DNA from: a virus
Taxonomy: Duplodnaviria; Heunggongvirae; Uroviricota; Caudoviricetes
IMG/VR virus record: IMGVR_UViG_2617270963_000006
Direction: 5' to 3' (one strand)
DNA: 19,276 nt
This document shows, piece by piece, positions 4,918-16,369 of this stretch. The notes beneath the pieces are model-generated. The model had not been told where the DNA came from, made no database searches, and was given only the letters and a program-made list of their open reading frames with translations. Every line of letters starts with the position of its first letter. The stretch's first letter is position 1. The position numbers were made by a program, and so were the translations under genes.

Positions 4918-5036
4918 TAGAAATGGCATTTTATGAATTGGCTACTTGGCGAATGGTTTACCATCGGTGGTATTGAGCACAATAAAAGGCCGTTCTTCGT
5001 GAGTGTTCTTATAGCAAAAGTTCAGTTGGAGTCTGA

Positions 5037-5744
5037 TTACCAGCTATGTGATGACCAGAACACTCGCCCTATGATTCTTACGTTTTTGTAGAATTCTTCT
5101 CTGTTCATTACTTCATCAGGATACTCTTCGCGGTTTATCGATCTGATAATTACCGATGTTGGCGTGGCTATGAGCGTTTTTACCCTTAACAAATCAGCTT
5201 GGCAAATTGCATATGTTTTACCATCCCTGATGCTCGTATCTTGCGTGTTTACCCCCACCACATCACCATCATGGAGTGTTGGCTCCATGCTTTGCCCAAC
5301 AACCCTGACCAACTTTGCCGCTTTTTCTGGAACTCCCATTTTTTTCAGGTAATAGCGCCTAAAAACTAGAGAGAATTCTGCGGACTCCTCCAATGCACAA
5401 CTTCCTCCGCCAGCTGAAAGTGAAATATTTAGAAGGGGGAGCGCAACAAATTCGTCATTATCATTTTGATGATCATCCCAGGCGATAGCTTTTAAAGATG
5501 ATTCCCGAGCATTAGATGGCTCTTCTGCGCTCTGTGGTCTCATTGACCCTATACCAGAGCTTAGCCATTCAGGGCGAACTCTTAACGCGTTGGCTAATTC
5601 GACCATTTTACGTGATCCGGTTGTTTTACCAGATGACATCTTTTGTATGGCTGGTTGTGATACCCCCACCATGTCTGCAAGTTGTGCTTGTGACAACCCG
5701 GCTGAACTCATGGCGGCATTTAGTCTTTCTGCGAATGTTTTCAT
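5037..5744 (-). CDS. cI: CI-type prophage repressor (N-terminal HTH, C-terminal S24/LexA-like autocleavage domain)
   Basis: The translation has an N-terminal HTH (LSQAQLADMVGVSQPAIQKM), a possible Ala-Gly cleavage site (SAGGG) and the S24 motif GQSMEPT. It is divergent from the cro-like gene. Confidence 0.85.
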   Translation of the reverse strand: MKTFAERLNAAMSSAGLSQAQLADMVGVSQPAIQKMSSGKTTGSRKMVELANALRVRPEWLSSGIGSMRPQSAEEPSNARESSLKAIAWDDHQNDNDEFVALPLLNISLSAGGGSCALEESAEFSLVFRRYYLKKMGVPEKAAKLVRVVGQSMEPTLHDGDVVGVNTQDTSIRDGKTYAICQADLLRVKTLIATPTSVIIRSINREEYPDEVMNREEFYKNVRIIGRVFWSSHSW

Positions 5745-5854
5745 ACCTGTAATCTATAACCACGGTTATCAAAAGTAAAACAACAATTGTTATTGCTCTG
5801 GTGTATAACTCATGTTATTTTTGGTTATGCTTTATTTGCTGTAGAGGTATGCTC
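5745..5854. promoter_or_regulatory. OR-like operator/promoter region between cI and cro, with 14-bp palindromic sites of form ATAAC-N4-GTTAT
   Basis: ATAACCACGGTTAT at 5756-5769 and ATAACTCATGTTAT at 5805-5818. A weaker match (ATAACTATATTTAT, 4554-4567) lies in the putative OL region. Confidence 0.5.
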
Positions 5855-6079
5855 ATGAATTTAGTGATTCAGCGAGCCTTGAATATTGTTGGCAGTCAAA
5901 AACGACTTGCAGCTGATTGCGGCGTATCACAGCCCGCTGTTCATAAATGGTTGCGAGGCGGAAAAGTTTCTCCTGAAAAAGTTTTCGCTATCGTTAATGC
6001 CACCAATGGTCAGGTTAAGGCTTACGAAATTCGCCCGGACTTACCGCACCTGTTTCCTCATCCGAACCAGGCTGAATAA
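5855..6079 (+). CDS. cro: Cro-like HTH regulator (74 aa)
   Basis: ATG at 5855 with GAGG 7 nt upstream; HTH motif (QKRLAADCGVSQPAVHKWLRG); divergent from cI. Confidence 0.65.
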   Translation: MNLVIQRALNIVGSQKRLAADCGVSQPAVHKWLRGGKVSPEKVFAIVNATNGQVKAYEIRPDLPHLFPHPNQAE

Positions 6080-6086
6080 GTAACAC

Positions 6087-6127
6087 CGCTCTTTAACATT
6101 GCTGGTCGTTCACCTCTAACAGGGTGA
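6087..6127 (+). promoter_or_regulatory. nutR-like site: boxA CGCTCTTTAACATTG plus boxB-like hairpin TCACC-TCTAACAG-GGTGA
   Basis: Read directly; boxA is identical over 14 nt to the nutL boxA. Confidence 0.5.
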
Positions 6128-6195
6128 GCAAACATCAGTGGCAAACCCATTGGGGATTGCCGCTTAACCCCATATCAATATAGGAAAATTAACAA

Positions 6196-6492
6196 ATGTC
6201 ACAAACAAGTTACAGCAAACTGTCACAGCGCGATATCGATCGCGCTGAAACGGATTTACTTATCAACCTGTCAGCTCTGACGCAAAGGGGACTGGCGAAG
6301 ATGATTGGCTGCCATGAATCGAAGGTCAGTCGTACCGACTGGCGATACATCGCGGCGATTTTATGCGCGTTCCAGATGGCATCTGATATCAGTCCGATCA
6401 GCCGGGCTTTCCAGCATGCCATTAACGTTCATGCAAATAAAAAACGTCCGGTTGGGGCCGGACGTTCTGAGCAAATCCTGATGAACATCTGA
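6196..6492 (+). CDS. cII: CII-like transcriptional activator (98 aa)
   Basis: C-terminus NKKRPVGAGRSEQILMNI resembles the lambda CII C-terminus (NKKRPAATERSEQIQMEF, recalled); central HTH; position after cro and nutR. Confidence 0.7.
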   Translation: MSQTSYSKLSQRDIDRAETDLLINLSALTQRGLAKMIGCHESKVSRTDWRYIAAILCAFQMASDISPISRAFQHAINVHANKKRPVGAGRSEQILMNI

Positions 6493-6562
6493 TATTCAGG
6501 CAGGGCATGGAGCAATACACGGGAATAATTCTGCCACATCTGGAAGAATTTCGCCAGCAACA

Positions 6563-6621
6563 ACACCAACCGCAGCAGCCTGAAGCCGATTGGGTTAACC
6601 CGGAGATACCGGGACCGTCTG
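6563..6621 (+). repeat. iteron-like direct repeat, copy 1 (about 58 bp)
   Basis: ACACCAACCGCAGCAGCCTGAAGCCGATTGGGTTAACCCGGAGATACCGGGACCGTCTG; a near-identical copy follows at 6653-6712. Confidence 0.6.
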
Positions 6622-6652
6622 TGAAGATGTGCAGTCACACCAATGTGCAGTC

Positions 6653-6712
6653 ACACCAACCGCAGCAGCCTGAAGCCGATTGGGTTAACCCGGGAGATAC
6701 CGGGACCGTCTG
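6653..6712 (+). repeat. iteron-like direct repeat, copy 2 (one extra G relative to copy 1)
   Basis: Direct comparison with 6563-6621. Confidence 0.6.
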
Positions 6713-6745
6713 CGGTATGGAGTAAATCTTGTATGCGAGGGGACT

Positions 6746-7828
6746 ATGCGTAATTACGCAACAATTTCACCTCAGTTCTGGTTAGGCGATACAGGGCGAA
6801 AACTCAGGAAGTCTGGTCCGGAATGTATGGTAGTGGCGTTGTATATGATGACCTCGCCTCATTCCAATATGCTGGGCCTTTATTACCTGCCTGTTTTGTA
6901 CATTGCTCACGAAACCGGACTTGATCCTGAAGGGGCTTCTAAGGGGCTTCAAATGGCTTGCGAGGCTGGTTTTTGCAGCTATGACCATGATTCTGAGGTT
7001 GTATGGGTGCATGAAATGGCAGCATGGCAGGTTGGTGAATCGCTGAAACCTGGCGATAACCGTTGTGCTGGGGTAAGAAATGAATATTCCGCGTTGCTGG
7101 AAAATCCTTTTTTATCATCCTTTTATGATAGATATAAGGATGATTTCCACCTGGATGTCAGACGTGAATCATGTCGGAAAATTGAAGCCCCTTCAGAGCC
7201 CCTTTCAAGCCAAGAACAGGAACAGGAACAAGAACAGGAAAGGGATAAAACCCTTCTGGTCCATGGCGAAAAAATCGCCACGGACCCACAGGGGGATTTT
7301 TGTCCTGTTCTGACTGAACGTCCAGGACCAGCTGGCACGACACCGGAAGCAGATTCCGGGCGTTGTGTGCAGCAGGTGCTGATCGTCGAACCGGAGCAAC
7401 AACGCCAACCGCAGCAGCCTGAAGCCGATTCCGCGATGAGCGGGAAGCCGATTGGGTTAACCCGGGCGATGCCGGGACCGTCTGCGGGACGAGTTGATTA
7501 TCCTGACGTGTTCGAACGGGTCTGGCGTGAATATCCGCATCGGGCAGGGTCAAACCCGAAGAAATCCGCGTTCAATGCCTGGAGGGCCAGATTACGCGAA
7601 GGGGTGTCACCGGATGTCGTGCTGGATGGCGTGAGGCGTTACGCAAGATACCTGGAGGCTACCGGGAAAGCGGGAACTGAATTTGTTCAGCAGGCATCGA
7701 CGTTTTTTGGCCCGAACAGGAATTTCGAAAATCCGTGGTCGCTGCCGAAGGCTGGCGCAGTCAGCCTGCGTTGCGTGAATCACATTTCTGAACCGGACAC
7801 CGAAATTCCGCCGGGTTTCAGGGGGTAA
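6746..7828 (+). CDS. phage replication initiator / replisome organiser (360 aa) with a DnaT-like C-terminal tail
   Basis: ATG at 6746 with GAGGGG upstream. The C-terminal residues SEPDTEIPPGFRG match the C-terminus of E. coli primosomal protein DnaT as recalled (SEPDSQIPPGFRG). It contains a third iteron copy and sits directly upstream of a DnaC-like gene. Confidence 0.7.
   Translation: MRNYATISPQFWLGDTGRKLRKSGPECMVVALYMMTSPHSNMLGLYYLPVLYIAHETGLDPEGASKGLQMACEAGFCSYDHDSEVVWVHEMAAWQVGESLKPGDNRCAGVRNEYSALLENPFLSSFYDRYKDDFHLDVRRESCRKIEAPSEPLSSQEQEQEQEQERDKTLLVHGEKIATDPQGDFCPVLTERPGPAGTTPEADSGRCVQQVLIVEPEQQRQPQQPEADSAMSGKPIGLTRAMPGPSAGRVDYPDVFERVWREYPHRAGSNPKKSAFNAWRARLREGVSPDVVLDGVRRYARYLEATGKAGTEFVQQASTFFGPNRNFENPWSLPKAGAVSLRCVNHISEPDTEIPPGFRG
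7211..7240 (+). repeat. hexanucleotide (GAACAG/GAACAA)n microsatellite encoding a (QE)n linker inside the replication initiator
   Basis: CAAGAACAGGAACAGGAACAAGAACAGGAA translates to QEQEQEQEQE. Confidence 0.6.
7405..7486 (+). repeat. iteron-like repeat, copy 3, interrupted by a 20-bp insertion or partial duplication, inside the initiator gene
   Basis: CCAACCGCAGCAGCCTGAAGCCGATT ... ATTGGGTTAACCCGGGCGATGCCGGGACCGTCTGCG; the internal GAAGCCGATT is duplicated. Confidence 0.55.
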
Positions 7829-7834
7829 TCAGCC

Positions 7835-8575
7835 ATGAAAAACATTTCGACAGGAGGGATTCTTGAACGGGTGCGCCGTCTGGCACCACCGCACGTGGCA
7901 GCACCGTTCCGGACGACCGACGAATGGCGGGAATGGCAACTGGCTGAGGGCCGTAAGCGCAGCGAGGAAATTAACCGCCTGAATCATCAGGCGCGGGTTG
8001 AAAAAATCCTGAACCGTGCGGGCATCCAGCCGCTTCACAGGAAGTGCTCATTCGGGAACTACCGGGTGCAGAACGACGGTCAGCGCCATGCTCTGAGCCA
8101 GGCGAAATCCATTGCCGATGAATTGATGACCGGTTATACAAACTTCGTGTTCAGCGGGAATCCGGGAACCGGAAAAAATCATCTGGCGGCGGCTGTGGGT
8201 AATCGTCTGCTGAATGCCGGTAAATCCGTGATAGTGGTCACCGTGGCGGATGTGATGAGCGCGTTACATGCCAGCTATGACGACGGACTGTCAGGGGAAA
8301 AATTTTTGCGTGAACTGTGCGAAGTGGACCTCCTGGTTCTTGACGAAATTGGCATCCAGCGTGAGACGAAAAACGAGCAGGTGGTACTGCACCAGATTGT
8401 TGACCGCCGGACGGCATCACTGCGCAGTGTCGGGATGCTGACAAACCTGAATCATGCCGCAATGAGCAAGCTTCTTGGTGAGAGGATTATGGACCGGATG
8501 ACCATGAACGGTGGTCGTTGGGTGAATTTTAACTGGGAGAGCTGGCGGTCAAACGTTGGACGTCAGGGTATGTGA
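7835..8575 (+). CDS. DnaC-like helicase loader (AAA+ ATPase, IstB/DnaC family), 246 aa
   Basis: Walker A GNPGTGKNHLAAAVG and Walker B LLVLDEIG in the translation; strong overall resemblance to E. coli DnaC; abuts the stop of the initiator gene. Confidence 0.9.
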   Translation: MKNISTGGILERVRRLAPPHVAAPFRTTDEWREWQLAEGRKRSEEINRLNHQARVEKILNRAGIQPLHRKCSFGNYRVQNDGQRHALSQAKSIADELMTGYTNFVFSGNPGTGKNHLAAAVGNRLLNAGKSVIVVTVADVMSALHASYDDGLSGEKFLRELCEVDLLVLDEIGIQRETKNEQVVLHQIVDRRTASLRSVGMLTNLNHAAMSKLLGERIMDRMTMNGGRWVNFNWESWRSNVGRQGM

Positions 8576-8600
8576 GAATTTTTGACGAGGTAAATTTTCG

Positions 8601-9371
8601 ATGGAAACCGTATTGCATGCACTGAAAGCGATGGGAAAAGCCAATTCTGTTGAACTGGCGGCGCGGCTTGATATCAGCCGTGAAGAAGTTCTCAACGAAC
8701 TGTGGGAGCTCAAAAAAAATGGCGTTGTTGATAAAACGGGTCACACCTGGTTTCTGGCTGTCGAAGGTGAAGCCGGGGTAACCGAAGGGCAGGCACTGCA
8801 ACCTGAAGCGCCGGATGTGGTAACCGAAGAGGTCGCTCCAAAAGTTACCGCAGACATGATGATTGAGTTTATCGATCAGGATGGGGCTAAAACGTGTGAG
8901 GAACTGGCGGGGGAGTTCGGTGTCAGCACTCGTAAGGTTGCTTCCACGTTGGCGGTGGTAACAGCAACGAGACGCCTGGTACGCGAGATCAGCAACGGAA
9001 AATTCCGTTACAAAATGCCTGATGTCGAAAACGGCGATTTGAGCGCTTTATCATCGCAGAATAAGCAATCACACCATGACGCAGAAAACAGCGCGGCAGG
9101 CGATGAAATGAATCGTTTTCCGTTGGCATCAGAGAGCACGGCAAAGGCCAGTACAGATGAGTTTATCCGAGAAGTTCCATCATTCACCGAAAAATCTGCC
9201 AGTTCGGTGATGCTTCCATCGCTGCATGCTGCCAGTCGAGAACTTCGTCGCGCCAAAAAACAGGTCCAGAAGTGGGAGCGAGTCTGCGCCGCGCTGCGGG
9301 AGCTGAACAAGCACCGGGATATTGTTCGACAGATTGTCGATTCATCCGGTCGTATTGTGTCGGAAAAGTGA
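8601..9371 (+). CDS. hypothetical phage protein, 256 aa, N-terminal winged-helix-like region
   Basis: ORF track; ATG with an upstream GAGG; same strand and tight spacing with neighbours. Confidence 0.55.
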   Translation: METVLHALKAMGKANSVELAARLDISREEVLNELWELKKNGVVDKTGHTWFLAVEGEAGVTEGQALQPEAPDVVTEEVAPKVTADMMIEFIDQDGAKTCEELAGEFGVSTRKVASTLAVVTATRRLVREISNGKFRYKMPDVENGDLSALSSQNKQSHHDAENSAAGDEMNRFPLASESTAKASTDEFIREVPSFTEKSASSVMLPSLHAASRELRRAKKQVQKWERVCAALRELNKHRDIVRQIVDSSGRIVSEK

Positions 9372-15709: not shown

Positions 15710-16369
15710 ATGGACATTGAAGATTTTCTGGAGGCGGAAGACAATGATCTGTCTCTGTGGAATGATGATATTTTAAGCATTGACTGGTTCGTTATCCTCA
15801 AAGAGCTTTTGAAATACCAGAACAGGTTAAAGTTAAACTATTCAGAATTACTTCTGCTGGCTAATTTTGTTTCATTTCACCAGGACGTAGATTCGCAAAC
15901 ATTACCATCAATATCTCTTTTTGCCACCAGAATGCGTGCATCTCGTGCCATTATAGAAGAAGGCTTTCAACGCCTGGAGGAGAAAGGGATGTTGCAGAAG
16001 ATAAGTTATGCTCAAATCGGTCATGATTATGATTTGCGGAACGTTTATGACATCAAGCCATTAATTCGTAAGTTAATTGAGGTGCTGAAAACCGAGTATG
16101 ATAAAAAGCACACTTGCCCCCTCTGCGGCAAAATAGCTGTCTCTGATGAGGAAATTGAGAAAAAATTCGGATTCAGAATTTGCGGGAATAAGAAAAGGCC
16201 GCAAAGCTGGTGCCGTTCATGCAGAAGCACGAAACAACGCAGACTGAATTCATCGCTAATTGGCAAAAAAAGCCCCGAAAATCTCCGCCCGAGGTGGTGT
16301 GAAGCGTCGCGGAACCCCGGATTCCACTCACGATTGAACGAGGTGCTAAAAAGTATTTTACGTACGTAA
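15710..16369 (+). CDS. hypothetical protein, 219 aa: N-terminal winged-helix-like DNA-binding region, central CxxC...CxxC zinc ribbon, basic C-terminus; AT-rich insert gene
   Basis: ORF track; AGGGGG RBS; visibly AT-rich versus flanking phage genes (by eye, not computed); intrinsic terminator 50 nt downstream. Confidence 0.6.
   Translation: MDIEDFLEAEDNDLSLWNDDILSIDWFVILKELLKYQNRLKLNYSELLLLANFVSFHQDVDSQTLPSISLFATRMRASRAIIEEGFQRLEEKGMLQKISYAQIGHDYDLRNVYDIKPLIRKLIEVLKTEYDKKHTCPLCGKIAVSDEEIEKKFGFRICGNKKRPQSWCRSCRSTKQRRLNSSLIGKKSPENLRPRWCEASRNPGFHSRLNEVLKSILRT

Follow-up and report, generated by a model that had tools for sequence, protein, structure and literature searches.

The window analysed here is a 19,276-nucleotide stretch of a Caudoviricetes genome (IMG/VR record IMGVR_UViG_2617270963_000006) that represents the early region of a lambdoid prophage. 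A repeat is present in three copies, two of which (A and B) lie in the spacer between the cII gene and a replication initiator gene, while the third (C) lies inside the initiator gene itself. We conclude that the upstream pair is quite likely a duplicated piece of the initiator's linker-coding sequence that has turned into an unstable tandem array, with neither a function at the replication origin nor a real protein product. The upstream copies are paralogues of copy C, they are restricted to one lineage, they are polymorphic in copy number and reading frame, and a deletion product formed between the array and the gene was recovered; that the copies lack a function, and how the first duplication came about, is what we infer. 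Genetic instability is the one demonstrated effect of the repeats, in that recombination between them removes the DNA-binding domain and the candidate origin that they bracket. The feature is an ordinary lineage-specific segmental duplication, or variable-number tandem repeat (VNTR).

Structure and distribution of the repeat copies

Copy A (6556-6624, plus strand) and copy B (6646-6715, plus strand), which follows A after 90/91 bp, both lack a 23-bp segment that is present in copy C, and A carries in addition a 1-bp deletion (CCCGG-AGATA). The A-B junction is formed by two tandem units of the 16-bp sequence ATGTGCAGTCACACCA (6627-6658, plus strand). Copy C, the apparent source sequence (7395-7487, plus strand), encodes residues 217-247 (EQQRQPQQPEADSAMSGKPIGLTRAMPGPSAG) of the 360-residue initiator, a phrog_1701 protein whose gene spans 6746-7828 on the plus strand. 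In pairwise local alignments, A (6563-6621) and B (6653-6712) are identical at 59/59 positions apart from one 1-bp indel (CCCGG-AG versus CCCGGGAG), A (6556-6621) matches C (7395-7484) at 63 of 66 positions and B (6653-6715) matches C (7402-7487) at 60 of 63, which corresponds to about 95% identity of either upstream copy to C. The homology of A with C reaches 5' to 6556 and that of B with C reaches 3' to 6715. Local alignment of the cII-initiator spacer with the gene gave a best score of 85, compared to 20.6 ± 2.1 (maximum 27) in 200 dinucleotide shuffles, and the repeats are therefore far beyond chance. The three repeats reported in the first-pass annotation are thus real at the positions it gave, as judged by repeat search, local alignment and shuffling, but the internal insertion of copy C, which it put at 20 bp, is actually 23 bp long (7421-7443). 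This segment consists of CCGCGATGAGCGG plus a second GAAGCCGATT, and is bounded by the 10-bp direct repeat GAAGCCGATT at 7421 and 7444.

Each of the three copies encodes QPQQPEAD when read in phase with the open reading frame (ORF) around it. For the upstream pair this is a 72-codon ORF (6507-6725, plus strand; hereafter ORF72), which is annotated as a hypothetical protein and assigned to phrog_2751 and which, as had been proposed, is generated by the upstream array. The further statement that the three copies share one frame holds only in this sense, since the absolute frames of ORF72 and of the initiator gene differ. As 23 is not divisible by three, the copies are translated differently in their 3' halves, as WVNPGDTGTVCG upstream and as KPIGLTRAMPGPSAG in the gene. 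The array and copy C form direct repeats that are 750-840 bp apart. The repeat unit is 59-69 bp long, recurs with a period of 90/91 bp that is not phased at the helical repeat, and is embedded in DNA with a guanine-plus-cytosine (GC) content of 0.55-0.65 (repeats and flanks) with no AT-rich region adjoining. These properties, together with the absence of the upstream copies from relatives below ~97% identity, do not fit the earlier description of the repeats as iteron-like.

Comparison with related prophages, a check that had been named beforehand, placed the upstream copies in one narrow prophage lineage only, that of the POCJ13 / 75-02 Stx type. Over 6100-7900 the window shares 98-99% identity with Shigella phages POCJ13 and 75/02 Stx as well as with Escherichia phages PhiR5_2 and phiSTEC1589-Stx1c, and prophages with this module were present in 81 of 5,426 complete E. 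coli genomes, O104:H4 outbreak strains among them; all 81 carry upstream copies. When the 600 bp upstream of each initiator were compared by blast with the respective own gene, upstream copies appeared only at loci with 97-99% identity, and none was found by this procedure in the full-length relatives L010-L019 (68-71%) or in ~65 more distant relatives of the N-terminal domain. The N-terminal domains of these ~75 loci without upstream copies are 48-71% identical to that of the window. Among 80 fetched loci with the C-terminal module, upstream copies accompanied the gene in 20/20 at ≥98% identity and in 0/60 at 68-73%, the latter having the intragenic copy only. Sequence matching C occurs at three places in the module phages and at one place in each of seven Tritos-type phages. 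A 29-nt pattern that marks the upstream form, searched as an exact match, was recovered from 33 IMG/VR contigs and from 0/185,579 species-representative genomes.

The upstream copies share all four of the indels and substitutions by which copy C of the window lineage differs from the Tritos/L010-type sequence, including two compensating 1-bp indels. Sequence comparison therefore supports the view of the upstream pair as a fragment duplicated from the resident initiator gene. Of the two explanations offered in the first-pass annotation, a duplicated gene fragment or an origin split across the gene start, it is the former that agrees with the shared private changes of C, the single lineage and the variable copy number. 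The leader that precedes the array (6486-6568) is unique, with no other match in E. coli genomes even by sensitive blastn.

The initiator aligns with phrog_1701 from end to end, and each of its halves has a match in a PHROG of its own; Pfam and NCBIfam searches returned no family for it. In an AlphaFold2 model built with 32 homologues, residues ~7-133 form a folded N-terminal domain with winged-helix-like topology and residues 250-337 a confident helical C-terminal domain, while residues 134-249 are of low confidence, with a predicted local distance difference test (pLDDT) score below 50. Copy C thus lies in the predicted disordered linker between the two domains. A Foldseek search of this model against the PDB gave no significant match (best E = 0.07), the top matches all being winged-helix regulators. 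The C-terminal module and the orthologous linker segment are found with ~80% DNA identity in proteins that have a different N-terminal domain (Tritos and six others), and also in the E. coli relatives L010-L017, which have the same N-terminal domain. The two halves of the initiator also occur in other combinations, and lambdoid replication modules are mosaic.

Relative to L001 and L010-L017, the window lineage carries within 7421-7487 a 1-bp deletion and, ~55 bp later, a compensating 1-bp insertion. This compensated frameshift recodes ~19 residues, which read SAMSGKPIGLTRAMPGPSAG in the window lineage and SAIQREADRVVPENTGQPVG in the relatives; the upstream ORF72 reads its copies in the ancestral phase. 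In the Klebsiella-type homologue L018 the linker segment is missing altogether, and the two observations together indicate that the linker is poorly constrained as protein. Copy C is dispensable for the protein, given its predicted disorder, the tolerated compensated frameshift and the lack of the segment in L018. Elsewhere in the linker, a (GAACAR)n hexamer tract (7211-7239) encodes EQEQEQ and varies from 3 to 7 units among near-identical prophages, giving rise to initiator lengths of 358, 360 and 362 residues.

Instability of the array and the status of ORF72

The number of upstream copies varies from one in L003 (UCPROB-002) and L006 to two in the window and three in L086 (TOE17). In L085 (23CRST047) there are three upstream copies that retain the 23-bp segment, with a period of 113 bp. 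A junction-specific query found at least two copies in 68/81 genomes, three of which have three copies, and among the IMG/VR contigs 28 have two copies and five have one. The 16-bp tandem unit is present 1, 2 or 5 times in natural variants (five times in P0002, once and combined with a frameshift in P0004), and the 23-bp segment is present in some variants and absent from others. A 100-bp length excess seen in three genomes arose from the joining of separate BLAST pieces and was rejected.

Sequence is also exchanged between the array and copy C, as L085 indicates by a pattern of gene conversion. Upstream copy u3 of this locus differs from its own copy C by one single nucleotide polymorphism in the core and shares with it the GATGCC and GGGAGATGCC variants, so that the L085 paralogues resemble one another more than they do their orthologues. 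In E. coli SW071619 (L084, NZ_CM129853.1 2432052-2432463) the 5' half of an upstream copy is joined to the 3' half of copy C, and the N-terminal two thirds of the initiator are gone along with the candidate origin. RefSeq annotates what is left as an N-terminally missing, frameshifted initiator pseudogene. SW071619 carries a prophage that was left replication-defective by this deletion between an upstream copy and C.

The variants of ORF72 encode 42, 72, 88 and 102 residues. Several variants are frameshifted, owing to a 16-mer that is single or repeated five times or to gain or lack of the 23 bp; in the frameshifted forms P0004, P0008 and P0010 the frame shifts after residue ~28-46. In L085 a stop at codon 44 leaves no annotated ORF72. 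Across 31 related loci, the unique first 20 codons of ORF72 show 0 synonymous to 5 non-synonymous changes, compared to 22:11 in cII and 28:18 in the dnaC-like gene; these counts are small, but they look like those of non-coding DNA for ORF72. We found no homologues of ORF72 outside this E. coli lineage and, in Pfam, NCBIfam and PHROG, no family match beyond its own PHROG. ORF72 was also considered as the remnant of the N-terminus of another initiator, and this idea was dropped, as its leader occurs in no larger protein and in no other DNA context. On the sequence evidence, ORF72 is most likely a by-product of copied in-frame coding DNA and not a real gene.

These data can be accommodated in a simple scheme. 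Copy C would be ordinary DNA that codes for the disordered linker joining the N-terminal DNA-binding domain of the initiator to its C-terminal domain. A fragment of ~70-95 bp of this linker would have been copied into the cII-initiator spacer in a recent lineage, that of the POCJ13 / 75-02 Stx / PhiR5_2 module; unequal recombination or slippage would then have enlarged it to a short tandem array with a unit of 90 bp, or of 113 bp where the 23-bp segment was kept. The 23-bp segment was presumably lost between its two GAAGCCGATT direct repeats. The array keeps changing, between 1-3 units and 1-5 copies of the 16-bp sub-repeat, and would be carried passively in the leader of the pR transcript.

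A candidate origin inside the initiator gene

The element of this locus that resembles an origin is a different one and lies wholly within the initiator gene. It comprises two candidate iteron clusters and an AT-rich dip between them. Cluster 1 (6929-6950, plus strand) consists of GAAGGGGCTTC TAAGGGGCTTC, phased at 11 bp and forming the codons for EGASKGL, and cluster 2 (7184-7205, minus strand) consists of two 11-mers that read GAAGCCCCTTC AGAGCCCCTTT on the plus strand and are followed by the purine-rich (GAACAR)n stretch. The dip at 7080-7170 is the only AT-rich one, with a GC content of about 0.32, and is a candidate unwinding region.

We surveyed the 11-mer in 81 loci whose initiators are 48-71% identical, allowing at most one mismatch in a 9-bp core. 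The core is found at 6.6/kb around the 5' half of the gene compared to 0.2/kb in the flanks, a 33-fold difference, and it always occurs as a pair at gene nt ~182-207 and as two or three copies at ~425-475, spaced by 11 bp. The AT-rich dip is kept at gene nt 331-435 in the same loci. Cluster 2 lies on the plus or the minus strand depending on the clade, and the encoded peptide changes with it (EGAFKGL versus EAPSEPL) while the DNA motif is kept. In 63 distinct homologues the cluster 1 codons for E62, G63, A64, K66, G67 and L68 are nearly invariant at the DNA level, with a codon entropy of 0-0.6 bit compared to 1.25-2.4 bit at every other conserved four- or six-fold site of the domain. The GAAGGGGCTTC clusters and the AT-rich dip are thus probably the real iteron and origin region of the phrog_1701 family. 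The family-wide constraint at the DNA level falls on this 11-mer, which speaks against an origin divided by the start of the gene. Set beside lambda, the arrangement is not the unusual one that had been suggested, given that the candidate origin is wholly inside the initiator gene, as the lambda origin is.

An additional 11-mer pair is located at -37/-26 of the initiator ATG in L020, L021, L028, L031-L033 and L039-L061; the window does not have it. This pair may be an autoregulatory operator, or the origin may extend past the gene start in these loci. A literature search for the 11-mer sequence returned unrelated primer matches only and no literature on the motif, two Eru-type papers on the replication regions of Stx phages make no mention of iterons, DnaC or these phages, and a search on POCJ13/DnaC found nothing relevant.

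A further feature of the initiator concerns its C-terminus. Residues 336-360 (7754-7828; …CVNHISEPDTEIPPGFRG) are weakly similar to the C-terminal tail of E. coli DnaT (NCBIfam E = 0.009; PDB entries 2ru8, 6aep and 9zbt, E = 0.009-0.03), which is the only weak family match of the initiator and the source of its annotations as 'primosomal protein I'. The resemblance hints at a partner-binding peptide shared by the initiator and DnaT.

The genes around the initiator are those of a lambdoid early region. An S24/helix-turn-helix repressor (5037-5744) is encoded on the minus strand, followed by a YdaS/Cro-like gene (5801-6079) and by a lambda-type cII (6196-6492, plus strand) as the upstream neighbour of the initiator; a DnaC/IstB-like helicase loader (7835-8575, plus strand) is the downstream neighbour, and nin-region genes are also present in the window. 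Within the 3' end of cII there is, at 6441-6468 on the minus strand, an intrinsic-terminator-like hairpin followed by a T-run, in the position of the lambda oop terminator. A consensus scan found no promoter for it, Rfam gave no oop family match, and an Rfam scan of 5000-9000 gave nothing credible. In the nin region, well downstream of the main replication module, a 219-residue ORF (15710-16369, plus strand) matches the DnaD N-terminal domain (PF21984, E = 2.6e-8) and represents a second replication-related protein.

Alternative explanations and comparison with known systems

A functional explanation would make the repeats accessory origin or regulatory sites bound by the initiator or a host factor, with the origin functionally split across the gene start. 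Such sites would modulate origin firing, by titration or handcuffing, or autoregulate initiator expression. We consider this unlikely. It draws on the position of the repeats in the pR leader directly upstream of the initiator ribosome-binding site and on the true 11-mer that a different clade of relatives has at -37/-26 upstream of the start codon. Other observations also weigh against a passive duplication, the first three of them being in favour of accessory sites as well. Every carrier of the window initiator allele keeps at least one upstream copy, the reverse complement of GAAGCCGATT in the unit is 2-3 positions away from the family 11-mer, the unit contains two short dyads (GGGTTAACCC and CCCGG-N6-CCGGG) whose stems, but not their loops, recur in the Tritos-type segment, and the synonymous and non-synonymous counts for ORF72 are small. 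Universal retention is, however, expected, because homologous recombination loses the last copy only together with the gene. The dyads show no compensatory changes, and one L085 upstream copy has a broken dyad. The unit length, the period and the high GC content are unlike those of iterons, copy number and the 23-bp segment vary freely, and the constraint in the family lies on a different motif; the repeats are moreover absent from relatives below ~97% identity despite common N-terminal or C-terminal domains. The leader RNA (6493-6770) has no unusual fold (z = -0.99), and no sigma-70-like site showed up in the array on a promoter scan. That the upstream array is a functional accessory element whose copy number tunes initiator expression or origin firing is likewise quite unlikely; recognition could in this case be by the initiator via the degenerate GAAGCCGATT, or by a host factor via GGGTTAACCC or CCCGG-N6-CCGGG.

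Two further explanations were considered. ORF72 has an ATG start preceded by a purine-rich stretch, is annotated in GenBank/RefSeq and clustered as a PHROG, and keeps its first 28 residues in all recovered variants, as would a real small protein (phrog_2751) built from a variable number of 30-residue modules, for which the repeats would be coding repeats. Its frame is nevertheless shifted in P0004, P0008 and P0010 and closed at codon 44 in L085, its unique part has changed at non-synonymous sites only, it lacks homologues outside the E. coli lineage and family matches, and its sequence is accounted for by copied linker-coding DNA, which makes a real protein very unlikely; ORF72, whose expression the first-pass annotation had left as a possibility, is not coding-like. 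The upstream copies might instead be a recombination scar, namely the linker remnant of a foreign initiator that was displaced in a module swap, as the mosaic replication modules and the other combinations of initiator halves would allow. The 5' flank of copy B (GCAGTCACACC) is in fact slightly closer to the Tritos-type flank (GCAATCACACC) than the resident flank is. We regard the scar as rather improbable, since the upstream copies carry all four lineage-specific differences of the resident C, the leader matches nothing else in E. coli genomes and MEQYTGIILPHLEEF occurs in no longer protein. Duplication of the resident linker sequence, followed by expansion into an unstable array, is the explanation that we prefer.

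On this explanation, a false candidate for the origin and a 'hypothetical protein' (phrog_2751) that is probably spurious can be struck off a replication module carried by Shiga toxin (Stx)-converting phages (POCJ13, 75/02 Stx) and by O104:H4 outbreak-strain prophages. The direct repeats provide a built-in route to replication-defective prophages, and their copy number is a potential typing marker. In itself the finding matters little. The comparison that led to it also locates the probable origin of the phrog_1701 initiators, an uncharacterised and widespread family without a Pfam entry, and this prediction is the more useful by-product and is directly testable.

One known system to which the repeats can be compared is ori-lambda, in which four 19-bp iterons and an AT-rich region lie inside gene O; iterons of lambda-type origins are several short direct repeats (~17-22 bp) in a regularly phased cluster. 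The window repeats are likewise tied to the initiator gene of a lambdoid early operon (cI-cro-cII-initiator-loader), and copy C is in the linker-coding part, where the ori-lambda iterons lie. However, the unit of the window is three times longer (59-69 bp), GC-rich and unphased, has no adjoining AT-rich region, and occurs in one lineage only with variable copy number. The part of the window gene that resembles ori-lambda is that of the GAAGGGGCTTC clusters and the AT-rich dip (6929-7260), not the repeats.

The Tritos-type or phrog_3729 proteins of E. coli phages Tritos, Evi, vB_EcoS-640R1 and others share with the window initiator the C-terminal module and the orthologous linker segment, with ~79-82% DNA identity and repeated PEADS / GAAGCCGATT motifs. 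They differ from it in that they have another N-terminal domain, read the linker in the ancestral frame (EADRVVPENTG) and have no copies upstream of the gene. The array itself is also close to the partial-gene duplications and VNTR-like arrays of prophages, with which it shares the high identity of paralogues, the copy-number variation among near-identical genomes, slippage at small direct repeats, namely those of the 10-bp GAAGCCGATT and of the 16-bp unit, and gene conversion and recombinational deletion between copies. What sets the window apart is that the duplicated piece is in-frame linker DNA placed directly upstream of its own gene, and it is this placement that yields both a plausible-looking ORF and a DNA-binding domain bracketed by direct repeats.

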